The notes under the pieces were generated by a model. That model had not been told where the DNA came from, ran no database searches, and was given only the letters and a program-made list of their open reading frames with translations. 64,000 nucleotides of DNA from a virus, in IMG/VR virus record IMGVR_UViG_3300037486_000490, positions 1-64,000 of that record; one strand, given 5' to 3'. Shown here piece after piece: positions 45,796 through 60,543 of the stretch (its first letter is position 1; each line of letters starts with the position of its first letter). Made by a program: the position numbers and the translations under genes.

Positions 45796-47250
45796 TTACG
45801 ATGCAACACAACGCAGGTGAACGCAATTGGTAGCACGTTTGATCTGTATACCGCCGGTCTTCATGAAATGAACTGAAGCTCCGTCGATGTCATTTGCCCT
45901 GAGAGCGTTTCCGGAGAATCCCGGAGGAACTGTAGCACCCGCAACAGCCCATCTGAGCATATCGCGTCCGGTCTGTACAACCATCTGGATGTTAGGTTCG
46001 CCATCATAGACTGAATGATCAAGGAAGAACATCCTGTATGATTCCAGGGGTAAGCCTGTGCGTGGATGTTTCGCTGAGTTGAGTGCACGAGCACCCGTGT
46101 CAAGAAGCGGGAGATGTCTTACGGTGATCGTATGACCATCAATGTGCTTGTAGGAAGTGAAGAATCCGCCAAACGTCATCGAGTTTCCTGAACCGGTTAT
46201 GAATGAACTCGGGTCTGTGTTCTTGATGTATGAGCCAACGCTGATCTCAGATTTGATAGCATTGTCAAACTCTTCAAGCCCACCGAGTCCTGTGTACAGG
46301 ATGATGTTCATTGACTGTGCATCCGAAGCTCCGTAGAGTGCATCGCGAACGATGTTCTTCAGTTTGGATGTAGTCAGGACCGTGTAAGAATCTACGTTAG
46401 GAATCTGCTCCATAACGCCGGATCCCATTGGGATAGGTTTGCCGTTCTCATCGCGCAGGTTGATAACGCCATTGGCGTCCCTGTTATATTTCGAGAACCA
46501 CAGAAGGTATTCAGCTTCCTCTTTCCAGCGGAGTGAATGCTGATACTCTTCGAAGTCATACCACAGCTTGGTCATCTTGCCGTTGACATTGAATTCAACG
46601 TTGACAACTTTATTGGGCATGTTACCTTCATACCTGTAAGACTTACGGATCTGTGTGATCTGGTTGCGCAACCTCGAGGGTGCTACCCAGTTCGACTCGT
46701 TTCCGCGTGATCCGGAAGCAGCAACAGGAGCAAACAACTGAACGAACAACTTATTAAGCAGGTCGGTTGTGCTAACTGTAGCAGCAGGATCGGTGGTGAT
46801 CAGGTGGGTGGTATAAGTCCATGCACCACTTGCTGTTTCAAAACCATCGTCATCAATACGGAACTGTGTTCCATCGGGTGATTCGATGATGTACTGACGG
46901 TTGAACCACTTTTCAGTGAACGTCAGTTTAATAGGTGCAAAGCCTGCACCAAGGGTAACACCGGCAGTTGTGCCTGTGTTAACCGCAGTACACATAACAG
47001 CCTTGTTGAGTCTTCCCATCACGGGATAATCAAATTCGAACCCATTGATGTAACGGGTGTTTCCAAGACCTTCAGTTAAGAAAGACAGTGGAAATCTTTT
47101 GTCTTCACGCCCCGCGAGGTGTGTAAGAACCGGTGAGAGAACATCTGGCTGTGTAAGCAGCGCGTTAGCCAACGAGTTCTCGTCGGTCATCCCCTGCGGG
47201 TTCCAGATGTCTGCATATAACCGGAGTTTTGAAATGTTGTCAGCAGCCAT
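45796..47250 (-). CDS. Major capsid protein (crAss-type HK97 fold)
   Basis: 484 aa; MTDENSL, FPLSFLTEG, RNQITQIRKS, GSGVMEQI, YTGLGG, HPRTGLPLESYRM; follows portal and scaffold. Confidence 0.9.
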   Translation of the reverse strand: MAADNISKLRLYADIWNPQGMTDENSLANALLTQPDVLSPVLTHLAGREDKRFPLSFLTEGLGNTRYINGFEFDYPVMGRLNKAVMCTAVNTGTTAGVTLGAGFAPIKLTFTEKWFNRQYIIESPDGTQFRIDDDGFETASGAWTYTTHLITTDPAATVSTTDLLNKLFVQLFAPVAASGSRGNESNWVAPSRLRNQITQIRKSYRYEGNMPNKVVNVEFNVNGKMTKLWYDFEEYQHSLRWKEEAEYLLWFSKYNRDANGVINLRDENGKPIPMGSGVMEQIPNVDSYTVLTTSKLKNIVRDALYGASDAQSMNIILYTGLGGLEEFDNAIKSEISVGSYIKNTDPSSFITGSGNSMTFGGFFTSYKHIDGHTITVRHLPLLDTGARALNSAKHPRTGLPLESYRMFFLDHSVYDGEPNIQMVVQTGRDMLRWAVAGATVPPGFSGNALRANDIDGASVHFMKTGGIQIKRATNCVHLRCVAS

Positions 47251-48451: not shown

Positions 48452-50815
48452 CTATTTCTTCTTTGCAGCAGGCTTCTTGGCTGCTTTTGCCTTAATACGG
48501 TCAACCACGAGCTTCTTCTCAGCTACCCTTAGTTTATCTTTTTCAATGCGTTCCTTGGATGCCAGTTCACTCTGCCGCAACTCAATATCGGCTACCCGTG
48601 CAGCACGTTGCTCAGCCAGGGAAGAGTAATGCTTTTCACGGTCCAGGTCAAGCTTCTCCAGTTCTACTGAGTTGTCCTCAGGAGCTTCCACGCTCTCAAC
48701 AGCCATGGACTCTGCGTTGAGTTTGAGGAGCAGAAGTTTTTCATCGGCAAGTCTCTGGAGTTCGTTCTGTTCTGCAGTGAATGCCTGGTTGTCTTCACGC
48801 TCGTTTATCTTGTTCTGCAACTCCATGGCTTTCATCTCCTGTTCAGCCTGACTCATCTGCTGTTCCATTTGAGCAGCTGCCGTCTCAACCTCACCAAGTT
48901 TCATCTTGATCTTGGAGAAACTGTTGCTGTCCAATATTTCTGCAATAGTAGACGGGTTGGCTTTATTCTGTGCAAATTCAAGGGCAAGCGATTTAAGTGC
49001 CTGGAGTTTGTCCTGCTCTTCACCACTCTTCATCACAAATACACCAAAGTCAGAATTGCAGTACATCTCCGGATTTATCTGCAGATATGCCTGGCGGTAG
49101 TCACTGGCGATGTAGGTAGCTTTTTTACCATTAACCCATGCTATCTGGGAGATATCCAGCAGACCCTGCAGGTCACGTTGTTCGACGGTTTCGAACTTGC
49201 GGAACATATCCTCAGTCATGATGGCGCTCTGGTATACAGCCCTTTCAGTTGTACCCTGACCGTCGGATGCCATCACGTTGCCTTTCCTCTGGCGACTGAT
49301 GCCCAGCATCTCTTCCCATTCAGTCTTTACTGCTACAAGCAGTTCGAACTGAGCAGCTATGTATTGACCCAGCGACATATCCAGAACCTGGTAGTTGTTG
49401 AAGGTCACACGCTCCTTGTCCTTGCCTTCGGCAGTGGAATCGATAAATGCAAACCCGTTAGCATCGGCATGGTACATGAATTTCTCCTCGTCCCATCCGT
49501 GACGCTTGGGTATGGTATTGATCTCAATGAGCGCAATCTTGTCCTTGTTCTTTGCTATTGAGAGCTCAAGGCGATAATGGAAGATATTGTACAGGACCTG
49601 GTAGGGAATGCCTAATGAGACAATGCTCACCGGATCGGAGTTTCGGTTTGAATATACTCTTCCATTGTATGGGAGTTTGCAGATGGACGGATTGTTCATC
49701 CTGTTACGCTGCTCCACGATGGGTTTTATGCCCAGATAAATATCCTTGTCAATGCGGTATCCTTCATAGACCTCGTTGATCCAGAACCACTCCACCCATT
49801 CACCAGCATCGGTGTCAGGTTTGTAGATATCGGATACCCTTGTTTCTTCTTCCTGTCCTGTCTGTGGATCCTGGTAATGCAGGATGCCTTCTCTCTTGAA
49901 GGACTTCCACACACCATGATAAACATCTATTAGTTCGCCTGGGAGAGAATTCTGCCCAGCCCTGTTAAGGAAAAAACCATCGGTAGTCCCAGTGTAGAAC
50001 CCACTGCCGGGGCTCTCGAGGTAATCGATTTGCGAGGGTGTGAGCTCATCGTAGAACTTATCCACGATGTCATTGGCGGTCATTGACGATTTCCTCACGC
50101 ATGAGGGAAGATCCTCAATGAACCGTACGTTAGGTACATCCGGGTAGGACAGGTCCATCGGATTGACAATCTCGTAATACGGCTCCTCATGATCTATCGC
50201 CTTATAGGTACAGACTACTCCGGTGACCAGCCAGTCAAAGAATGCAGTCATCAGGTTGTCCGGTATCTCCAGGTAGGACATCATGTACTCCAGAGCTTCA
50301 CCGCCCATAACAGCACGCATGTCCCTGTAGTTCTGCTGGAACTCCTCCTGCACTTTGGCAGGATCCTGCGTCTCTTCGCTCGGATTGCCTGTTGGCAAGC
50401 CTGCTTCATTAAGCTGGTTGATAAACTGCTGCTTGAGGGTTCCCATAACAGCCTGCTGCATCTCTTCTTCTTTCTGGGTGACGGCATCCGCATTCTTTAC
50501 CACAACATGGTAATTCAGCGGACGCTTCGTCTTTTCACCCAGCAGCAGATCAATGATAGGACGTATGATATTGTAATTTCTTACCCTCGAAGGGAGTTTG
50601 TATGTTTTGTTGGTGTTTTTATAGGGGTCTGTAACGTACTTGTATTCAGACGGATCAAGTATTCCATTGTATGAGTCGTAGTATGTTTTGTATGCCGTGT
50701 AGTTGGCAGTGGTTACAAAAGCTGCCGCTATGACTGCATCCAGTGAATCAATACCCCAGTTCTTATCCTTGGAGCCCCTGGATAATTTCTGTTTTGGAAA
50801 ATTTGGAATACTCAT
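48452..50815 (-). CDS. Portal protein
   Basis: 787 aa; FPKQKL, RNYNII.P.IDLLLGE..KRP, KLPYNGR, GISRQRKG; follows TerL. Confidence 0.9.
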   Translation of the reverse strand: MSIPNFPKQKLSRGSKDKNWGIDSLDAVIAAAFVTTANYTAYKTYYDSYNGILDPSEYKYVTDPYKNTNKTYKLPSRVRNYNIIRPIIDLLLGEKTKRPLNYHVVVKNADAVTQKEEEMQQAVMGTLKQQFINQLNEAGLPTGNPSEETQDPAKVQEEFQQNYRDMRAVMGGEALEYMMSYLEIPDNLMTAFFDWLVTGVVCTYKAIDHEEPYYEIVNPMDLSYPDVPNVRFIEDLPSCVRKSSMTANDIVDKFYDELTPSQIDYLESPGSGFYTGTTDGFFLNRAGQNSLPGELIDVYHGVWKSFKREGILHYQDPQTGQEEETRVSDIYKPDTDAGEWVEWFWINEVYEGYRIDKDIYLGIKPIVEQRNRMNNPSICKLPYNGRVYSNRNSDPVSIVSLGIPYQVLYNIFHYRLELSIAKNKDKIALIEINTIPKRHGWDEEKFMYHADANGFAFIDSTAEGKDKERVTFNNYQVLDMSLGQYIAAQFELLVAVKTEWEEMLGISRQRKGNVMASDGQGTTERAVYQSAIMTEDMFRKFETVEQRDLQGLLDISQIAWVNGKKATYIASDYRQAYLQINPEMYCNSDFGVFVMKSGEEQDKLQALKSLALEFAQNKANPSTIAEILDSNSFSKIKMKLGEVETAAAQMEQQMSQAEQEMKAMELQNKINEREDNQAFTAEQNELQRLADEKLLLLKLNAESMAVESVEAPEDNSVELEKLDLDREKHYSSLAEQRAARVADIELRQSELASKERIEKDKLRVAEKKLVVDRIKAKAAKKPAAKKK

Positions 50816-50882: not shown

Positions 50883-52928
50883 TTAGAAGAAGCTTCTGTC
50901 CCAGAATGATCCTTCGGATGTCTCCTGGGCTTCGATCACCTGTTTTTTATACAAATCCTTCATATGGTACATTCCCACTATCATAGCGGAAACCCTGTCG
51001 AAGTTTCCTTCGCCGTAACGTATCAGTTCGTCCAGCAGCTGTAGGTCGTAGATATAATGCAGGTTCAACTTGTCCTTGCCATCATCGCCCTTTCCGCGGT
51101 GCATTATCAACCAGTCCCTGAGATAAATCTGTCCCTGACCCTTGCGCTCCTTGTTTGAGATGCTCATGCCGTAGGTACGTCCGAGCTTGCGAATGTTGAT
51201 GTTTTCCCGCTTGTCTATTATCTCCACCTCTTCCAGCAGCCAGCGCAGCTTATGCGTGCGCTTGGCATACTCCACCACGTTACCACGGTCATTTTCAAAT
51301 CCTATGCGTGCGTTGTAATACTCAGCCAGCATAAAGAGTACTTCGTTGTACTCGTCCTGCGACCCGGGTCTACCCACCCATGAGGCGACTATCATATCGT
51401 CAGGCTTGGATAGGGGGTTAATACGCTTTAAGACATACGCTGCACCGAGGGAGTTGCCACCGGAATCATCCTGTGCATAAGGGTCGCAGCATATAATGTA
51501 CATGTTATCGGGGATAACTCCGTCTGAGGAATAGAAGGGAGCCTGGTACACGGTCACGCATCCATGGATATTGTCTCCCTTTTCATGGGGGAACTTGGCT
51601 ACGGGACGAGCACTGTCCGAAGGTTTAAAGATCGTCTTGGCTTCAACACTCGTAGTAAGGAATCCGTTGACAGCCACGTTCTTATACAGCCCATGGGTAA
51701 AAATGTGGTTACGCCATTCAGAGATTGCCACCGTGGGGAATATATTCCCCGTTGTCCGAAGAAATGCTTCCCGAGGGGAGAAGGGACGTTCGGTAACATA
51801 CTTGTCAAGGATCGCCGGTGACTTGGCGGTAGTGCGTATATTCTCACGTTTTGCTTCTTCATATTCGCGCGCTGTCTGCCTATTGGAGTTTCCGTTGGAG
51901 TCTATGAACCCCTTTTTGTTTTGGTAATCAGGAAAGAAGAACCCGCAGTAAGTGCCGCGCGCATCATCGTCCCATATGTTCTCAACCGGGTAAAGGTTGT
52001 AAGGCTCGGGGTTATAGAACATCGACTCGAAGTCAATGGTACCACCTTCCATGTCACCACCAGTACCGTACAGCAGTATCTGACCGGTGATCAGCGCCCC
52101 ATCTTCTACAGCTGACTGGGTCGCCAGGTAAGAAGCCTTAAGGTTGTTGAATTTACCGCACTCCTCAAATAGGATGAGAGATGCATCCTTACCACGGGCG
52201 GCGTCCGGGTTATCAGCGAATGTGGTAGCGATTATCTGCGACCGGTAGCCTTTTTCGACATAGATCCCATTTATTTGTTCCAGATATGATGCCTTCACAT
52301 GCTCCATACGGTTGGTCACACCCCGGCGCTTTGTCCAGGCGGTATGCTCGTTCATGAAGTTCAGGTTGTCCACGATCATGCTCATGGTACCGTTGGGATA
52401 GAGGTACTTCTTATCGAATGCACCCACGAGCGTTATGGAGTCCCTGATAGTGTTGTACTTATTGGCTGCCTTGTCCGCATTCTTATAGGAATATCCTTTT
52501 CTTCGTGCCTTGCCGCAGATGACATGGTGACCACCATCTATCCACAGGGGTTTCTGATCCAGCAGTAATGCCTTAAGCTTTTCAGGGTCAATGCCCTTTT
52601 CCGCTATCTCGATGTGCCAGTAGTACTCATAATCTCCGTCCCAGAAGTCCGGGAAAGTCACGGTCTTTGTCTTGTACCGGGTCTTGCGCTTGGTAACTCC
52701 CGGAATCTCATCCACATCTTCGGTGAGTTTGATCTGCCCGAAGTTCAGGTAATGGTAATGATCGCCTGTAATCTGTTTTCCACCCGAGCTGTATCCATTA
52801 ATACACCGGCGCAGCTGCTCGTTCCAATATTCCATGTAACCCATGGAACTTGGAGGATCGTCGCAGTATCGCCCGTATTTGAGGAAAGTCTTGGCTTCCT
52901 CACGGAACATCTCGGTGTTAACCCACAT
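50883..52928 (-). CDS. terL: Terminase large subunit
   Basis: Walker A GKARRKGYS, Walker B LILFEECG, YGTGG, nuclease DPY and NFDRVSA. Confidence 0.93.
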   Translation of the reverse strand: MWVNTEMFREEAKTFLKYGRYCDDPPSSMGYMEYWNEQLRRCINGYSSGGKQITGDHYHYLNFGQIKLTEDVDEIPGVTKRKTRYKTKTVTFPDFWDGDYEYYWHIEIAEKGIDPEKLKALLLDQKPLWIDGGHHVICGKARRKGYSYKNADKAANKYNTIRDSITLVGAFDKKYLYPNGTMSMIVDNLNFMNEHTAWTKRRGVTNRMEHVKASYLEQINGIYVEKGYRSQIIATTFADNPDAARGKDASLILFEECGKFNNLKASYLATQSAVEDGALITGQILLYGTGGDMEGGTIDFESMFYNPEPYNLYPVENIWDDDARGTYCGFFFPDYQNKKGFIDSNGNSNRQTAREYEEAKRENIRTTAKSPAILDKYVTERPFSPREAFLRTTGNIFPTVAISEWRNHIFTHGLYKNVAVNGFLTTSVEAKTIFKPSDSARPVAKFPHEKGDNIHGCVTVYQAPFYSSDGVIPDNMYIICCDPYAQDDSGGNSLGAAYVLKRINPLSKPDDMIVASWVGRPGSQDEYNEVLFMLAEYYNARIGFENDRGNVVEYAKRTHKLRWLLEEVEIIDKRENINIRKLGRTYGMSISNKERKGQGQIYLRDWLIMHRGKGDDGKDKLNLHYIYDLQLLDELIRYGEGNFDRVSAMIVGMYHMKDLYKKQVIEAQETSEGSFWDRSFF

Positions 52929-53890
52929 TACAGAGTGATAACTTGTCTTTTCTGTGATTCGGGCGTATAAAGGACCTCATGGAACGCATAACGCCCGTCT
53001 GCAAAAATATCCACATATCCGTACCCCCAATGAACTACTTTCGACATGCGCAGAGATCCATACTTGGTCATAGCCCCTTGCAGGGCAGGAAGCACCACCG
53101 CTGTCCGGAACCCGTCATCTATACGAATGAACGTATGGGTATGAGAACGGACTACTATGTCAGCGGTAGGGTTGTTCTCCAGCTGCGCCCAGAGGTCGCT
53201 CCAGAGAGCATCCTTAAGCAAAGGAGTTGCAGCTCCGTAAGGTGTTGAAGACCCTCCGGTATGATGCTTTACGTTGAAGATCACCCCGCCTATACTCAGC
53301 AGGTTCTCAGCATTAAGCATTGCACCAGTCTGCTGGGCAATGTTATACTCAAAAGCTTCCCCATCACCCGTATGATACGGAGTGCCATAGGTGATAACAT
53401 TGATCTTGGCTCCTACGGTGTCTATCACCTTAACAGCCATATCCACCTGGATATTCCGGTCAGTGGTAAGCAGTTCCGTACCTTTGCTCTTCTTACCGTC
53501 CCCGTCAATGAGATCGCCGTTGAAGATCGCATGTGTAAACGGTCTAAGACTATCGATGGATGCCGTAAAGAAGTCCCAGGACTCCCTTTCGAATTCTGCA
53601 AAGATCTTGTCTACTGCAGAATCCAGCGGAAGCTGGTACCCCTGTGGGGTGAGACCTGCCTTATGCCCGCAGTGAAAATCACCGGCAAGCAGTACCCTGT
53701 ACTTGGGTCGCTCCCTCAGTGCCTCCCTCATTGGCTCCTCGTTCAGAAGAACAAAGTTGAGCATGGTGGCTTCCCTGAGGGAAATGCCAAGCAGTTTAAT
53801 CAGTTCAGGATTACCTGCCTTAGGATGCATCCTTTTATAAGCGAATATTTTTGCCAATTCAATCGACGAGTATTTCCTTGGTATAGCCAT
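52928..53890 (-). CDS. Calcineurin-like metallophosphoesterase
   Basis: GDFHCG, NGDLIDG, GTPYH, KHH, SHTH. Confidence 0.85.
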   Translation of the reverse strand: MAIPRKYSSIELAKIFAYKRMHPKAGNPELIKLLGISLREATMLNFVLLNEEPMREALRERPKYRVLLAGDFHCGHKAGLTPQGYQLPLDSAVDKIFAEFERESWDFFTASIDSLRPFTHAIFNGDLIDGDGKKSKGTELLTTDRNIQVDMAVKVIDTVGAKINVITYGTPYHTGDGEAFEYNIAQQTGAMLNAENLLSIGGVIFNVKHHTGGSSTPYGAATPLLKDALWSDLWAQLENNPTADIVVRSHTHTFIRIDDGFRTAVVLPALQGAMTKYGSLRMSKVVHWGYGYVDIFADGRYAFHEVLYTPESQKRQVITL

Positions 53891-53892
53891 AA

Positions 53893-54489
53893 TTAGTTTT
53901 CAAATGAATTAATATCACCACCGCCACGGATCTTGCGTCCGTTGCTCTGTTCCATTTTTACCTTTTCCTCAAGGTCCTCAAGCGTGCCTATTGCCTTTGG
54001 CAGCTTATCGGCAAGCACCAGGAGACTGGAAACAGACTGCACAATACTGTTAATCTCTTCTATATCGGATTCATCCTCACCTTCTGCAGGCGGAGTATTG
54101 AATGCAACCAGGCGATCCTCGATGCGCGAGCGCAGTGTTTCTATAACCTTGGTTGATGTCATCAGCGATTCGCGAATTGCGATAAGGGTACTGATGGAAG
54201 GGGTACGCTGTAGCTCGTCGTACTTGAGCTGAGCATCTATTACACCCTTGTCCGGTGTCCAGTCGGGGGACAGACCAAGCTCCCGCTTGACCCTCTGGAT
54301 GCGTTCGTCCTTGGGATAGATGATATACGGAGACTTGTAGTCAGTGACGAAGTAGATGAATGCAAGTTCCTGGAACGAGCGTTTCTTCTCCGGGGTCTTA
54401 TCTCTGCGAATAAGAGCAGCAAACTCCGGGATCACCTTGACCTCCGGAGCTATGACTATTTGGTGGTTTTCTTCTGAGAAGACTCCCAT
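53893..54489 (-). CDS. Conserved crAss protein upstream of TerL (terminase small subunit candidate)
   Basis: RRDK..EK....ELAFIYF..DYKSPY and C-terminal IRGG; synteny. Confidence 0.6.
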   Translation of the reverse strand: MGVFSEENHQIVIAPEVKVIPEFAALIRRDKTPEKKRSFQELAFIYFVTDYKSPYIIYPKDERIQRVKRELGLSPDWTPDKGVIDAQLKYDELQRTPSISTLIAIRESLMTSTKVIETLRSRIEDRLVAFNTPPAEGEDESDIEEINSIVQSVSSLLVLADKLPKAIGTLEDLEEKVKMEQSNGRKIRGGGDINSFEN

Positions 54490-54737
54490 GTCTGAGTTTG
54501 TTCATCCAGCCGACGATTAGCCATCGACTCATTAAGCTTCTTAAGCCTACCAGGTTTCACATGGAACTTCCCGAGGTACGGGAGACTGACGGTCTCAAAG
54601 CCGCTGTGTTCCATCATGTAAGTTGTATACTTGCTCTGGGTGCGCACGATGGACATTATCTCTTCCACAGGTGCACCTATCTCTTTACTGATCTCCCTGC
54701 ATATCTGCACTTCAAGATCACTCTTGGGGTATGCCAT
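54456..54737 (-). CDS. IHF/HU-like DNA-binding protein
   Basis: 93 aa; V.LPYLGKF.VK HU-type arm motif. Confidence 0.75.
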   Translation of the reverse strand: MAYPKSDLEVQICREISKEIGAPVEEIMSIVRTQSKYTTYMMEHSGFETVSLPYLGKFHVKPGRLKKLNESMANRRLDEQTQTWESSQKKTTK

Positions 54738-55069
54738 CAGCGCTTAATGAACTTAAAGCAAAGACCATTGCGAAAGTTTTCGGGATCAAGCACCGGGTTA
54801 TAGGAGTAGAGCCCTATGCCGTTTACCAGGAGAACGCCCTTATCCTTGAACTTCTTAATGTAGTTGTTCAGAACTGCGACATTCTTCATTGCGCATTTTT
54901 TCACAACCGCTTCCTTGAACTCATGCGTACAAGGATCGGTAGTGGATGTCTGGAGAAACGCCTCCAGCACCTTAAGTTCTTTGTTTGAAAGTTTCAGAAG
55001 CCCGTTCAGGACTTCAAGGTAGGAGCTGATAAAAGTCTCCTCATGTACCTGGATGTTCAGTGTCTTCAT
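54737..55069 (-). CDS. Winged-helix DNA-binding protein
   Basis: LSNKELKVL...LNNYIKKFKDKGVL...YNP. Confidence 0.65.
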   Translation of the reverse strand: MKTLNIQVHEETFISSYLEVLNGLLKLSNKELKVLEAFLQTSTTDPCTHEFKEAVVKKCAMKNVAVLNNYIKKFKDKGVLLVNGIGLYSYNPVLDPENFRNGLCFKFIKR

Positions 55070-55343
55070 TATGCTGTTTTACATTTTGTACTTTGCGTGC
55101 GAGTCGCTTCTTCAGAAGCCGTCTGATGCTTTTAAGAAGGAAGATGGTGTTCTGGTTCTCTGCCGAGTACCTTACCTTCTGCAGGTGGTAGAAGCGCTCG
55201 ATCATCATGTCGATCACTTCTTCGTTGGTAGTACCGTTGCTGTAGCCGCCGGCGGGTAGTTTCTCCGTAAATCTCAATTGTTGTGAACTGTCCCCGTTAA
55301 AGTTGAGTAGTTCGAACTCTGCACCCTCTTTAATTACTTTCAT
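55041..55343 (-). CDS. Tad1/Acb2-like small helical-hairpin protein (putative immune-signal sponge)
   Basis: ATG at 55343: MKVIKEGAEFELLNF...QLRF..K...NGTTNEEVIDMMIERFYHLQ...S.EN; pattern resembles Tad1-family proteins. Confidence 0.6.
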   Translation of the reverse strand: MKVIKEGAEFELLNFNGDSSQQLRFTEKLPAGGYSNGTTNEEVIDMMIERFYHLQKVRYSAENQNTIFLLKSIRRLLKKRLARKVQNVKQHNEDTEHPGT

Positions 55344-55345
55344 AG

Positions 55346-55488
55346 TAACAGAATAATATATCGTATATGCAACAAATATATTACTCAATGCAAATATAAT
55401 CAGAATAATGTTCTGTTTAACCGCTGGTATATAGACTTTTTGTATTTAGTTATCAACTTCTTACGTCAAACGGAATATTATGTAACTT
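55346..55488. promoter_or_regulatory. Divergent promoter region with three operator-like 21-mers
   Basis: TATATTTG x2 on the minus strand (55373-55380, 55391-55398) and TAACTTTG on the plus strand (55483-55490); AACAGAATAAT-type sites at 55346, 55398 and 55468. Confidence 0.55.
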
Positions 55489-55522
55489 TGGGTAAACAAA
55501 ATGTCCCCCGAGAGGGGGTCAT

Positions 55523-55733
55523 CCGTACTTCTTCCGTACTCGTAATGTACTTTGTTCTCGTAACTTGTTGATAATCAATCTAAGCGGCGGTGCGGACGGG
55601 ACTCGAACCCGCGACCCTCGCAGCGATTTTGAAGGGTATAACCTTAAATTCTTCTCCAAAGTATCAGGGTATACCTTTATAAAGTTCCGAATAAAAGTTT
55701 TCCGAGTACGGATCAAGTACGGGAAGCCGTACT
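55523..55733. mobile_element. attP-like attachment site with a tRNA-Asp 3'-end core and arm-type repeats
   Basis: 55587-55617 reverse complement GGGTCGCGGGTTCGAGTCCCGTCCGCACCGC (T-arm and 3' acceptor strand only); CCGTACT at 55523, 55534 and 55727; AGTACGG at 55705 and 55716; directly upstream of the integrase. Confidence 0.8.
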
Positions 55734-55752
55734 CCAATCTAAAATCTAAACC

Positions 55753-56949
55753 ATGCCCAGCATTAAAGTCAGAAAGTATGGAAACTCGGTTTACGTGATC
55801 TATGTTCATCGTAACCAAAAACTGAAAGTTTACACCGGGGTAAAGGTCGATGACCTGCATTGGAACCTGTCTGTCCCGAGGAAGAGCTGTCCCAACTACG
55901 ACAATGTGCTTGCCCAAATTAACCAGATGGAAACACGCCTTCTGAACGCTTCCATGAAGGTACGTACGATGGGTATAGACCCGACAGTTGACAGGGTGAG
56001 GATGGAGCTTAAAGCACAGGAGGTGGTAAAGGAAGCGGAGAAACCCTTCTGGGAAATATACAACACCTATCTCCTTACGCGCACCTTCAAACCTCCGACA
56101 CGCCAAAAGGTGGAGATCCATAAGAAGATGCTGCAGTTCTTCTGCACCTGGTCGGGCTATGAGTTCGATATAAAGACCTGGGACAAGCTCGCCTTTGGCA
56201 GGTTGATACAATACCTATTGTTCACACAGAAGATGGCAGACTCAACTATAGACCGGTTGGTAAGAGGTGTGAAAGCTTTTCTCCGGTTTGCTTATCCTAC
56301 GGTTGACCTGTCGTGGATGAAGTACAAACTCCTGAGTACTGAAGAGACCGTGGTGGCACTTTCGGATGGGGAGCTTAAGTATCTTATCGACGCTGACCTC
56401 GGCGGTTACCTGGAGAAGACCAGGGACCTATTCGTGTTCCTCGCCACTACCGGTATGCGCTTTTCAGATAGCCAGCTGTTCAATCCGACCTGGGTAACCG
56501 AGGAACAGATACTGGAATTCAACCAGCATAAGACCGGCGGGAAAGCTTATCCTCCCTTATACGAGGTATCCCGCAGGATCCTCTCCAAGTACAACGGTAT
56601 ACCTCCCCAGATCTCCAACCAGAAGTTCAATGATTACCTGAAAGTCCTGTTTGAGGAGCTTAAGTTCTCCAGATCCATTACCTCTAACATCGTCCGCAAT
56701 AAGGTTGTATTCACCTCAGTTGCCCCATTAAGTGAGGTAATCTCCTCACATACAGCGCGTCGTACATTTATTTCTCTCTGCCTGTCCCATGGAATACCGA
56801 TCCAGGATGTGATGAAAATGTCTGGTCACGCCGATTATAAGTCCATGAGACCCTATATCCGAGTCACCCGTCAGCACCTTCGTACAGTAGCCGATAGGTG
56901 GAATCCCGGGGCAACTGTAGAAGGATCAGGAAGTTCGGGAGGTTTGTAA
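55753..56949 (+). CDS. int: Tyrosine integrase (Bacteroidota type with arm-binding and SAM-like domains)
   Basis: RDLFVFLATTGMRFSD, ISNQKFNDYLK, SSHTARRTF, MSGH, PY catalytic R-H-R-H-Y set. Confidence 0.93.
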   Translation: MPSIKVRKYGNSVYVIYVHRNQKLKVYTGVKVDDLHWNLSVPRKSCPNYDNVLAQINQMETRLLNASMKVRTMGIDPTVDRVRMELKAQEVVKEAEKPFWEIYNTYLLTRTFKPPTRQKVEIHKKMLQFFCTWSGYEFDIKTWDKLAFGRLIQYLLFTQKMADSTIDRLVRGVKAFLRFAYPTVDLSWMKYKLLSTEETVVALSDGELKYLIDADLGGYLEKTRDLFVFLATTGMRFSDSQLFNPTWVTEEQILEFNQHKTGGKAYPPLYEVSRRILSKYNGIPPQISNQKFNDYLKVLFEELKFSRSITSNIVRNKVVFTSVAPLSEVISSHTARRTFISLCLSHGIPIQDVMKMSGHADYKSMRPYIRVTRQHLRTVADRWNPGATVEGSGSSGGL

Positions 56950-57074: not shown

Positions 57075-57515
57075 CTAATCCTCCTCGTCCTCCTCAAAAT
57101 CTTCTTCATCATCATCATCGAAAGGTTCCTCAGGCTCACATCCGGGTATAGTATCCAGGCGGGACAAGTCTATATATCGGGGATTGGTAATCTGGAATCC
57201 GCCGGATATCTCATCGATTTTCATCATCGTTGAGAGTATGGTGATAGGGGAGAAGATGATTATGGGAAAGGTGAGCAGAGTACGGTTCTTATCTCTTATT
57301 ACGCTATAGATGGCATCTTCCTTAATGAATGGGGCTGGAAAGTAGGGTAAGGAAGAGGATACCCAGTCCAGGATAGAATCGTCAGGTCTGCCATTACGCA
57401 TCAGCTGATCCTTGATAGTCTTACCCATATTACGAGAAACCTGGATAGCTATCGTAAAGTTCTTACGATTGAGGATATCCTGCGCATTCGCCATCACAAT
57501 CTTACTTGCTCGCAT
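57075..57515 (-). CDS. Hypothetical protein with an acidic C-terminal tail
   Basis: 146 aa ending DDDDEEDFEEDEED; overlaps the upstream gene. Confidence 0.6.
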   Translation of the reverse strand: MRASKIVMANAQDILNRKNFTIAIQVSRNMGKTIKDQLMRNGRPDDSILDWVSSSLPYFPAPFIKEDAIYSVIRDKNRTLLTFPIIIFSPITILSTMMKIDEISGGFQITNPRYIDLSRLDTIPGCEPEEPFDDDDEEDFEEDEED

Positions 57516-57903
57516 CTGTTATAGAGAATTTACCAAAAGGTTTTTCCAAATAGTATTTCAACTTATACTCAAAGGCTTTCCGGTCCTTATTGACGTAATA
57601 CCGCTCAAGTATTATCGGGATATCCGCGATGCTATAGTCTAACCTTCCTACAAGGATTATAAGCCCCGCGCGCGTGAGGCGGTCAAGGGACTTGTCCAAC
57701 GTCCTTCTCCCCAGTCTCAACTCCCTCTCCAGCGCTCTCTTGCACAGGGAGATCCTGTTCTTTCTACTCCTTCCTACCAGCAGCAGCATCTTCTCAAATA
57801 CTGCTGCATCATCGAGCGTCCATTGAGATTGAACATGCTGAAGCTCACTGAAAGCTATAGACAAATTTAAGCTTTTATGCATAATATTATGTTGAATAAA
57901 CAA
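57502..57903 (-). CDS. Winged-helix DNA-binding protein (regulator candidate); start uncertain
   Basis: LERELRLGRRTLDKSLDRLTRAGLI HTH-like segment. Confidence 0.55.
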   Translation of the reverse strand: MFIQHNIMHKSLNLSIAFSELQHVQSQWTLDDAAVFEKMLLLVGRSRKNRISLCKRALERELRLGRRTLDKSLDRLTRAGLIILVGRLDYSIADIPIILERYYVNKDRKAFEYKLKYYLEKPFGKFSITDASK

Positions 57904-57928
57904 CCATTGTTGATAACTAACGCAATTT

Positions 57929-57973
57929 AAACAGAATAATATTTGGTTTGTATAAACCTATCGTATATATTTG
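57929..57973 (+). promoter_or_regulatory. Bacteroidota sigma70 promoter overlapped by an operator-like palindrome
   Basis: TTTG (57942-57945), 20-nt spacer, TATATTTG (57966-57973); AAACAGAATAATATTTGGTTT at 57929-57949. Confidence 0.65.
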
Positions 57974-57991
57974 CAACGTAAAAATTGATGA

Positions 57992-58240
57992 ATGGACATA
58001 CCAATTAAAGAAAAAAGAAACAGTCTCCTGGTGATAAGACTCACCGAGAGCGAAATGCAAATAGTACGAGCTTTTAAAAAGTCCAATCAGTTGATCAATA
58101 TATCTCATATTGTTCGTGAACATCTGCTTAAGGTAATTGCCGAGTGTACAAATGTACAACTTTCCGAAGAGAAATCCTCAACAGGAAATTCCAAGGACTG
58201 GATATGGATCAATCCTATCGAGGTAGTAGCCAATAAGTAG
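57992..58240 (+). CDS. Ribbon-helix-helix transcriptional regulator
   Basis: KRNSLLVIRLTESE...NISHIVRE RHH pattern; first gene of the rightward operon. Confidence 0.65.
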   Translation: MDIPIKEKRNSLLVIRLTESEMQIVRAFKKSNQLINISHIVREHLLKVIAECTNVQLSEEKSSTGNSKDWIWINPIEVVANK

Positions 58241-58445: not shown

Positions 58446-58718
58446 ATGGTAAAAACCTTATTGACAATAGGCAACCGGGTCATGGTAACCTGGGGACAAC
58501 CCCACTTCGATTACCTGGAACCAAACAAACTTAAGGACCTTAAGCCGGAGCTGGTAGGGAAGGTTGGAACTATTCTGGACTTTCACCCTATGAAGGGGTA
58601 CAAGGTGCTGATAGACACTTCTCTTCCGATAGCAGGCAATAACCTCTTCTGGTTCAACGCGAACTGTATACGTCGACTCTCCTTCATAGAGAGCGTTATC
58701 GACTGGATAAAAAACTAA
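58446..58718 (+). CDS. Small SH3/KOW-like hypothetical protein
   Basis: IGNRVMV...GKVGTI...YKVLID. Confidence 0.6.
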   Translation: MVKTLLTIGNRVMVTWGQPHFDYLEPNKLKDLKPELVGKVGTILDFHPMKGYKVLIDTSLPIAGNNLFWFNANCIRRLSFIESVIDWIKN

Positions 58719-58727
58719 ATCAATACA

Positions 58728-58997
58728 ATGACTGAAGATGCATTTACAAAACCCCGGGTCATCATCTTCCCGGGGATCCCCGATAAGACCGGCGGATACC
58801 GAACCTTGAACAACAAGCCTCTTGCGCACAGGACGGCTTTTTATTGCAAGGTCATAAAAGGTGATGAGAACATGGGCGAAGTGTTCACTCCCGAAGAGAT
58901 AGACTATATCATTAAGGACTATGTAGTGAACAAGCTCAACAAGGAATTGGTGAGTAAATCTTTGAGGGATATTATCGTCCATATAAACAACTCATGA
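58728..58997 (+). CDS. Hypothetical protein
   Basis: A-rich translation initiation region; coupled operon. Confidence 0.6.
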   Translation: MTEDAFTKPRVIIFPGIPDKTGGYRTLNNKPLAHRTAFYCKVIKGDENMGEVFTPEEIDYIIKDYVVNKLNKELVSKSLRDIIVHINNS

Positions 58998-59263
58998 GTA
59001 TCAAACATCTTATGAAAGATCTACTTCCTTCCGACCTTCCTTTTCCAAAAAAAGCTGACGACCTCATTGGGCGGGTTATTCCATGTCCCCACCCCAATTG
59101 TGGTACGATGCTGGATATAGGAAGCGGAGGAGTAGAACATTTTGGACATCGTCACATATTCAAGATGAGTCTGGAGGAGCTGTTTCAGATGACCTTATGG
59201 GGTAATAAGATAGATCGCCTGCTATGGTTTGGCAATAAAACACAATCTCATAATAACACTTAA
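58994..59263 (+). CDS. Hypothetical zinc-binding protein
   Basis: CPHPNC...H..H; ATGA overlap with upstream gene. Confidence 0.6.
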   Translation: MSIKHLMKDLLPSDLPFPKKADDLIGRVIPCPHPNCGTMLDIGSGGVEHFGHRHIFKMSLEELFQMTLWGNKIDRLLWFGNKTQSHNNT

Positions 59264-59920: not shown

Positions 59921-59988
59921 ACCCTCTTAGTTTAATGGTAGAATCCCGGTTTAGCTGGGAGATGCGAGTCCGACTCTCGCAGAGGGTT
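59921..59988 (+). tRNA. tRNA-like gene with a shrunken anticodon loop (identity undetermined)
   Basis: ACCCTCT/AGAGGGT acceptor stem, TAGTTTAATGGTAGAA D-arm, CCCGG-TTTAG-CTGGG arm, GCGAG-TCCGACT-CTCGC T-arm. Confidence 0.6.
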
Positions 59989-60006
59989 CTAACTAAATCA
60001 ACAAAA

Positions 60007-60543
60007 ATGCAAATTTTACTTGACATGGATGGAGTCCTCTCGGACTTTACATCCGGCGCACTTGATGCGCTGAATAAGAAATACAACAAGCGCCATACAA
60101 TTGTCTCCTACGCTGCTGATTATGGCAAGTGGGACATAGCATCGCTATACGGTATAACGGACAAAGAGTTATGGTCAGTTATTAAACAGACCGAGGGGTT
60201 CTGGATGAGCTTAAAGCCACTTCCATGGTTCAGGGAGCTCTACGCTGCTCTTGCAGAGAGGGGAGAGGTGACCATACTCACTACCCCGTCCTGGGATCCT
60301 GATTGTGCTAAACAGAAGCTCCAGTGGTTGAAGATGTATCTGGGAGTGAACTCTGAGGCGGTGATGATGGGTGCTCGCAAGGAGCTACTGGCTGGTAATG
60401 GGTTACTGATAGATGACAGCGAGGCTAACTTCAAAAGGTTCATCATTGCCGGTGGTGATGCGGTGTTGGTACCGAGCAACTGGAACACGATAGAGATAAG
60501 TTTCCTTGATGTGTGGAACGAGATTGAAAGGGTGATGGGATGA
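60007..60543 (+). CDS. HAD-family 5'(3')-deoxyribonucleotidase (NT5C-like)
   Basis: ILLDMDGVLSDF, ILT, K..WL, LLIDD; start moved to ATG 60007 because the track's extension overlaps the tRNA-like gene. Confidence 0.88.
   Translation: MQILLDMDGVLSDFTSGALDALNKKYNKRHTIVSYAADYGKWDIASLYGITDKELWSVIKQTEGFWMSLKPLPWFRELYAALAERGEVTILTTPSWDPDCAKQKLQWLKMYLGVNSEAVMMGARKELLAGNGLLIDDSEANFKRFIIAGGDAVLVPSNWNTIEISFLDVWNEIERVMG

Follow-up and report, generated by a model that had tools for sequence, protein, structure and literature searches.

The 64,000-nucleotide stretch of viral DNA described here (the window, considered at its full length) comprises positions 1-64,000 of the IMG/VR record IMGVR_UViG_3300037486_000490, a 92,500-bp record from a sediment metagenome that is called G000 below, and covers about two thirds of the genome. 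Comparison of its attachment region with that of an integrated relative indicates that G000 is very probably a temperate crAss-like phage in the Campbell sense, with the host gene for tRNA-Asp(GTC) as its bacterial attachment site (attB). In the mechanism proposed, the integrase encoded at 55753-56949 would recombine the phage attachment site (attP, about 55523-55733) with the 3' part of the host tRNA-Asp(GTC) gene, and the whole phage would come to lie between the two junctions attL and attR. The former would contain a complete tRNA-Asp, its 3' part re-supplied by the phage copy, and the latter the displaced 3' fragment, next to the integrase.

The attachment core

The core of the putative attP is located at 55587..55620 on the minus strand and reproduces the 3' portion of tRNA-Asp(GTC), beginning with the last three bases of the anticodon stem and ending one base beyond the discriminator. 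Within it the 31-mer GGGTCGCGGGTTCGAGTCCCGTCCGCACCGC (55587-55617, minus strand) spans the variable loop, the T-arm, the 3' acceptor strand, the discriminator G and one further base. A match to this 31-mer was found in 0 of 100 shuffles of the window. An earlier note on this DNA, made from the letters alone, had pointed to such a tRNA 3' end near a complete tyrosine integrase and had reasoned that a second copy of the core could mark the integrase as part of a separate inserted element; the 31-mer was found only once, whether the window or the full record of 92,500 bp was searched.

Neither ARAGORN nor Rfam called a tRNA at 55587-55617, which shows that only the 3' part is present there and that the 5' half is missing. 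The core is flanked by phage genes, with those for the large terminase (TerL), the portal and the major capsid protein (MCP) to the left and the early genes with two tRNAs to the right. Together with the absence of the 5' half, this is the unintegrated configuration, as the earlier note had described it. The ends of the record point the same way: bases 1-126 are an exact repeat of 92361-92486, which is followed by 14 unmatched bases, and the joined ends map by BLASTN onto a continuous stretch of the relative G001 described below.

The 31-mer was searched for by exact matching in GTDB genomes, one genome per species, and was found at no fewer than 120 loci, all of them 3' ends of tRNA-Asp with the anticodon GTC, which agrees with the assignment given in the earlier note. 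Among the 80 matches listed, most belong to metagenome-assembled genomes (MAGs) of Bacteroidales or other Bacteroidota, and 11 to Enterobacterales sharing this tRNA-Asp end. In the matches listed the identity between core and host extends at most three bases 5' and at most two bases 3' beyond the 31-mer, so that the common block measures 31-36 bp depending on the host; it amounts to 34 bp (55587-55620) where the anticodon stem of the host reads GCCGA. The same core is found in many families of Bacteroidales and in some Enterobacterales, so that it indicates the Bacteroidota and no particular host or species. The expectation that the core would help to identify the host thus holds at the level of the phylum and not below it. 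The host of G000 is placed in the Bacteroidota, and within them most likely in the Bacteroidales.

The integrated relative and the empty site

The relative G001 (IMGVR_UViG_3300002220_000740; 92,245 bp, CheckV completeness 100%) was found through its integrase, which is 80% identical to that of the window. The two genomes are collinear, with about 71% nucleotide identity over 55% of the genome in whole-genome BLASTN. The sole break in this collinearity falls exactly at the core: window 52937-55620 corresponds to G001 89393-92082, at the end of the contig, and window 55587-56904 corresponds to G001 125-1440, at its start. The position of this single break means that G001 is the same type of genome opened at attP.

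The core is present twice in G001, at 125-155 and 92049-92079, both on the minus strand, within a direct repeat of 41 bp that brackets all 91.9 kb of the phage. On the right the core belongs to a complete tRNA-Asp(gtc) gene (92049-92124), which is followed by 121 bp of unrelated DNA. On the left, beside the integrase, it belongs to a tRNA fragment that begins at the anticodon GTC and continues to the 3' end; this fragment is preceded by 124 bp of unrelated DNA with a terminator-like hairpin. The empty site was predicted by placing the tRNA between the right and the left flank of G001, which gave a sequence of 321 bp. The joined flanks aligned as one piece (52-297 of 321; 246 bp, 89.5%) to the Bacteroidales MAG L034 (CAVTAA010000004.1), which is phage-free at this site and thus represents an empty attB. 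The integrase protein of G001 (P0003) is also on record on a contig of 165,400 bp, longer than any phage of this type. Judged from its layout, G001 is a relative integrated at tRNA-Asp, with both attL and attR, and together with the empty site this sustains the earlier proposal that the lineage integrates at the host tRNA-Asp.

The arms of attP

The DNA on either side of the core resembles the arms of a lambda-like attachment site. The heptamer CCGTACT occurs in 15 copies in the window, compared with 4.4 expected, and five of these fall within 55523-55733. The left (P) arm (55523..55540, plus strand) contains two direct copies, at 55523 and 55534, 11 bp apart, and the block CATCCGTACTTCTTCCGTACT of this arm recurs unchanged in the attP reconstructed from G001. 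In the right (P') arm (55705..55733) the heptamer is inverted at 55705 and 55716 and direct at 55727; this block, GTACGGATCAAGTACGGG.AGCCGTACTCC, is conserved in G001, and an exact-pattern scan of IMG/VR found it in G001 only. The same kind of scan gave no match in IMG/VR for the junction between the left arm and the core of G000. These repeats around the core are taken as candidate arm-type integrase sites, in the layout expected of a lambda-like attP.

Adjoining the core, at 55628..55649 on the plus strand, is a conserved non-coding block, TTTGAAGGGTATAACCTTAAAT; this 22-mer is shared without change by G000 and G001, and no further IMG/VR contig contains it. Its element GGGTATA(A)CC recurs at 55668-55676, and the block is possibly a site for an accessory protein or for the integrase itself. 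The attP region as a whole, 360 bp of non-coding DNA, is 79% identical in the two genomes, the arm motifs and the 22-bp block being unchanged. Just to the left of the attP arm, at window 55349-55420, there are two copies of CAGAATAAT(A/G)T.., 52 bp apart. The second copy is identical in G001 together with its flank (CAGAATAATGTTCTGTTTAAC), and the element could serve the late operon as a promoter or an operator.

The integrase

The tyrosine integrase gene (55753..56949, plus strand) is complete, encodes 398 amino acids and starts 133 bp beyond the 34-bp core. The protein matched PF00589 with an E-value of 1.8e-8 and 34.8 bits (cut-off 27.1) and the integrase family phrog_1 with 3e-22, and NCBIfam gave only weak matches of the XerA/C/D type. 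All six catalytic residues are present (R236, K260, H333, R336, H359 and Y368); in 24 homologues five catalytic residues were invariant or nearly so, and H333 was the majority residue. The HxxR...GH...Y block could be aligned to the XerA structure 4a8e. Comparison with the G001 orthologue gave a nonsynonymous divergence (dN) of 0.14 and a synonymous divergence (dS) of 1.57, with dN/dS 0.09. These data show an integrase that is intact and, as judged by the substitution ratio, under purifying selection.

The N-terminal arm-binding domain PF17293 and the SAM-like domain PF13102 remained below threshold in the window integrase; they are recorded for many homologues (30-64% identity) and for the integrases of two further relatives, G376:C25 and L174, discussed below. 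Homologues 61-63% identical to the window integrase were found on the metagenome contigs L147-L152, at 1-2 kb from a complete tRNA-Asp(gtc), and one with 56% identity (L153) near tRNA-Lys(ttt). Two further homologues, P0027 and P0032, are on record on contigs of 380,048 and 855,175 bp. Within up to 10 kb of sequence, contigs L147-L152 showed no homologue of the queried late-module proteins of the window (portal to orf115) or of its early proteins. The occurrence of these integrases beside tRNA-Asp in the absence of the queried phage proteins ties the family to tRNA-Asp beyond the crAss-like group, and by this comparison the family of the window integrase is one common to other integrative elements.

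Genome organization and crAss-like affinity

The module to the left of the attachment site contains the genes for a crAss-type MCP (45796-47250), a crAss-type portal (48452-50815) and TerL (50883..52928; phrog_6681, 1e-137), all on the minus strand and forming a packaging and head module of crAss-like type. In the PDB the MCP matched only PhiCrAss001 gp32 (E 1e-14) and the portal only gp20 of the same phage (E 3e-71). Among GenBank phages every match, 115 of 115 for MCP and 161 of 161 for TerL, belonged to crAss-like phages or to the Flavobacterium genus Fipvunavirus. The best MCP identity was 33-34%, to the Obtuvirinae of the Intestiviridae, and the best TerL identity was 40%, to Fipvunavirus, with 26-34% to four families of the International Committee on Taxonomy of Viruses (ICTV). 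Part of a giant open reading frame (ORF) of more than 3,900 aa matches phi14:2 g067, and residues ~2411-2978 of the part used as query show similarity (E 1e-7 to 1e-15) to the 'putative RNA polymerase' annotated in cr111_1, cr112_1 and PhiCrAssBcn25. The two giant ORFs gave no match in the PDB, and no RNA polymerase match was obtained in the PDB or PHROGs.

In the TerL tree G000, G001, G376:C25, L172, L170 and L174 form one clade with support of 93/97. The tree, which was calculated without an outgroup, places this clade in a four-way polytomy with Steigviridae plus Suoliviridae, Crevaviridae plus Intestiviridae, and Fipvunavirus plus L175. Comparison with the Crassvirales (PhiCrAss001 of the Steigviridae; cr8_1 and cr271_1 of the Obtuvirinae) and with Fipvunavirus showed that these phages alone have homologues of MCP, portal and TerL and, in part, of the giant virion protein, and that they agree with G000 in genome size and in the two opposed gene blocks. 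The differences are the low identities (26-40%) and the separate deep TerL branch of the G000 clade; moreover, the cultured crAss-like members are without an integration module (PMC6235969, PMC10983915), whereas G000 has one. The comparisons give good support to regarding the clade as crAss-like in a broad sense. On TerL it is a lineage as deep as the ICTV families, joined to them in this polytomy. The designation of a temperate Crassvirales candidate in the earlier note therefore stands for the crAss-like character, as seen in MCP, portal and TerL, and not for a position within the order, for which the tree gives no placement.

Two further features of the genome may be recorded. Of the tRNAs to the right of the attachment site, that at 59921-59989 (plus strand; Rfam 41.8 bits) was assigned the anticodon TTA by ARAGORN and would decode the stop codon UAA; the long ORFs of G000 are open under the standard code despite this tRNA, which overlaps the annotated start of an NT5C-like ORF (59935-60543). 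Within the replication block, RIIA-like and RIIB-like genes adjoin at G000 79599-83233 (PHROG E 3e-67 and 3e-36).

Further relatives and their integrases

A second integrated relative, G376:C25, was found by a TerL search of 401 Bacteroidales genomes; another TerL match in this sample, G306, had 26% identity. It is a 96,369-bp contig of a Bacteroidales genome, in which the head, tail, giant-protein and replication modules are syntenic with those of G000; the protein identities range from 22 to 65%, MCP being 65% identical. The contig contains an exact direct repeat of 36 bp, at 8091-8126 and 90511-90546, the second copy of which forms the 3' terminus of a complete tRNA-Pro(ggg). Outside the repeats the DNA is bacterial, 8.1 kb on one side and 5.8 kb on the other. 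The left flank encodes a DbpA-type DEAD-box helicase, a pyridine-nucleotide disulphide oxidoreductase (thioredoxin-reductase-like), a GNAT protein, a hydrolase and a methyltransferase, and the right flank a Cthe_2159 protein and a protein with a type IX secretion system (T9SS) sorting domain. When the left flank was sought in 39 genomes of the same family, the identities were 65-69%, so that these genomes are too diverged to reveal an empty site, and tRNA-Pro is not beside the flank gene in them.

Just inside the left repeat of G376:C25 there is an integrase with PF00589 and PF13102, 27-31% identical to that of the window; two tandem integrase-like ORFs, 8196-9434 and 9431-10210, are present. 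They are followed by homologues of window 55041-55388, 54737-55069, 54456-54737 and 53893-54489, and then by TerL. By this arrangement G376:C25 is integrated in tRNA-Pro through a different integrase, at the same position of the phage genome.

The IMG/VR contigs L170, L171 and L174, the TerL of which is 59-60% identical to that of G000, encode at the same position an integrase with 37-42% identity to that of the window. The integrase of L174 (37% identity) has a tRNA-Asp 3'-end fragment of ~50 bp located ~150 bp upstream of it, and the 7 kb to the left of the cassette consist of ORFans, which suggests that this contig is probably a free phage. The integrases of G376:C25 (8091-10210, L142), L170 (44-703) and L174 (7080-8456) are not orthologous to that of the window (27-42% identity) and have the opposite orientation to TerL compared with it. 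The layouts of G376:C25, L170, L171 and L174 indicate that the clade keeps a cassette, with the tRNA fragment on one strand and the integrase on the other, at a fixed place. The fixed place, the occurrence in either orientation and the exchangeable integrases look like cassette exchange. It is tempting to speculate, although we would rate this a little below an even chance, that an environmental clade of family level is temperate as a rule and contains, between the early genes and the packaging operon, a swappable cassette of tRNA 3' fragment and integrase, directed to Asp in G000, G001 and L174 and to Pro in G376:C25.

Alternative explanations

Several observations weigh against the view that G000 is itself temperate. 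The integrated state was seen only in the relatives G001 and G376:C25 and not for G000 itself. Its attP differs from that of G001 at four positions in the part of the anticodon loop and stem (AATCGCTGCGA compared with AGTCACGCCGA), and these four differences limit the tRNA-Asp identity of the G000 attP to 34 bp instead of 41. The substitutions could represent drift; that the attP of G000 and the att sites of G001 share just the 34-bp block is most simply read as strand exchange 3' of the anticodon loop, and strand exchange would thus be expected inside this block. Searches of the G000 record against Pfam and PHROGs recognised neither a CI-like repressor nor an excisionase, and family searches gave no match to HTH_3 or to AsnC-type regulators in it, though G001 has an HTH_3 gene. 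Finally, CheckV estimated the completeness of G000 at 66% and IMG/VR lists the record as linear. The 126-bp overlap of the ends and the collinearity with G001 across the junction argue that G000 is circularly closed and complete at ~92.4 kb, so that the CheckV figure is probably an underestimate.

These observations could be accommodated if the module were a relic, that is, if the lineage were temperate, as G001 indicates, and G000 no longer integrated and persisted in a lytic, carrier or plasmid-like state while its integrase gene and attP decayed. The substitutions in the anticodon part, the lack of a recognisable repressor or excisionase, and the fact that G000 was seen only in its free form agree with such a course. 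It is nevertheless improbable, because the integrase gene and the arms are usually the first to decay in relics, and here the integrase keeps its full length and every catalytic residue, with a dN/dS of 0.09, the arm motifs are perfectly conserved and the 34-bp core is still identical to the host tRNA-Asp. A different objection concerns the relatives, which might be chimeric assemblies formed through the 36-41 bp shared by a host tRNA gene and a free circular phage. The att repeats are indeed short, the host DNA outside the att sites of G001 amounts to just 124 and 121 bp, and the Logan unitigs of the source run break at the core. In the Logan contigs of the three public runs the breaks are at 55616 and 55591, and the loose ends there are ordinary host tRNA-Asp genes. 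An artefact of this kind would have had to arise twice in the exact Campbell topology, at two different tRNAs and with two different integrases; G376:C25 is flanked by 8.1 kb and 5.8 kb of bacterial genes, the G001 integrase is on record on the 165,400-bp contig, and the short flanks of G001 would fit the trimming of proviruses in IMG/VR. We regard such chimeras as very unlikely.

Still slightly less credible is the view that the integrase belongs to a small nested mobile element or is a Xer-like resolvase, the tRNA fragment being a leftover of a phage tRNA. It could appeal to the weak XerA/C/D-type matches, to the occurrence of this integrase family in elements without crAss genes and to the phage tRNA genes 3.7 kb away. 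A nested element would lack a second core copy to bound it, and the repeats of G001 enclose the entire phage and not a part of it. The fragment equals the host tRNA-Asp and not a phage tRNA, and in G000, G001 and L174 it occupies the canonical site, ~135 bp upstream of the integrase. Integration of the complete phage at tRNA-Asp thus remains the preferred explanation, and the pattern of conservation suggests that G000 itself still integrates.

Candidate regulatory genes

Downstream of the integrase, a leftward operon (57075-58159) diverges from the rightward early genes; neither the operon nor the rightward ORFs 58446-59263 gave a match in Pfam or PHROGs. The operon includes an ORF of 133 aa (57502..57903, minus strand), the DNA of which is conserved with G001. 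In language-model features this ORF scores 0.96 to HTH_36/MarR-like clusters, and its Atlas model, of mediocre quality, resembles winged helix-turn-helix and RepL-type folds; it matched nothing in Pfam or PHROGs. It may be considered a candidate winged-helix regulator, as a lead only. For an 80-aa ORF no match was found in the Atlas. In G001 a protein of 73 aa with an HTH_3 domain (E 2e-11) is encoded at 10069-10230, and no counterpart was detected in G000.

Comparison with known systems

The mechanism proposed is a textbook one, and the interest lies in its carrier, a crAss-like lineage. Classical prophages and islands that target tRNA genes (Campbell-type integration with a lambda-type attP, as in P4, P22 and HP1) have the same RKHRHY tyrosine recombinase, the same attP beside int with a copy of the tRNA 3' end that restores the gene after insertion, the same repeated motifs on both arms, and direct-repeat attL and attR as seen here in the integrated relative. 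Unlike them, G000, at ~92 kb, is a podophage of crAss-like type that has a replication module of its own as well as a giant virion protein, and no xis or cI homologue was recognised in it.

The Bacteroides elements NBU1, NBU2 and CTnDOT, with the integrases IntN1, IntN2 and IntDOT, offer a second comparison; NBU1 inserts at the 3' end of tRNA-Leu and NBU2 at tRNA-Ser. They share with the lineage of G000 the host phylum and the insertion at a tRNA 3' end, and the PF13102 and PF17293 domains typical of the group occur in homologues of the window integrase. The window integrase itself is above threshold only for PF00589. The cargo also differs, being a mobilisable element in the one case and a phage in the other.

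The nearest precedent among crAss-like phages is the epsilon group, for which a repressor, anti-repressors and related incomplete prophages in Parabacteroides were described and no integrase was found (PMC11054128). Both are crAss-like lineages proposed to be temperate and having prophage-like relatives in Bacteroidales chromosomes. They are complementary in what was recognised: a repressor and neither integrase nor att sites in the epsilon phages, and an integrase, attP, attL, attR and an empty attB, with no repressor recognised, in the lineage of G000.

The earlier note had stated as established that characterised crAss-like phages do not integrate. This is indeed the accepted view of cultured gut phages: PhiCrAss001 has no obvious lysogeny genes (PMC6235969), and for Carjivirus communis no integration is reported, lysogeny in the Crassvirales being put at 'very low rates' (PMC10983915). 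Likewise, crAss-like prophages are reported to have gone undetected in RefSeq Bacteroidales (PMC7511551) and are a matter of speculation only in Yutin 2021 (PMC7886860). The statement does not extend to phages known in silico. Passages in PMC7511551 and PMC11923282, citing Yutin 2018, refer to lysogeny modules predicted for some of them, and a mouse catalogue of 2026 reports that annotated integrases are enriched in certain groups of Crassvirales, and gives no att sites (PMC13503771). Because lysogeny modules had already been predicted for crAss-like contigs, the present finding is less unprecedented than the earlier note implied. In full-text literature searches no description of an attP, attL or attR from any crAss-like phage was found.

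Biological significance

The persistence of crAss-like phages without lysogeny is a standing puzzle; the cultured members are without lysogeny genes. Here the integrase, attP, attB, attL and attR of a crAss-like lineage are resolved to the base, which shows that the virion and the replication machinery of crAss phages can be combined with ordinary lysogeny. The attachment site also provides a firm host link, to the Bacteroidales, for an uncultured phage from sediment, and the pair of int and attP is a candidate tool for integration at tRNA-Asp in Bacteroidota, similar to the vectors based on NBU2. If the temperate state is ancestral, it is the gut Crassvirales, which do not integrate, that would form a derived branch without the integrase.

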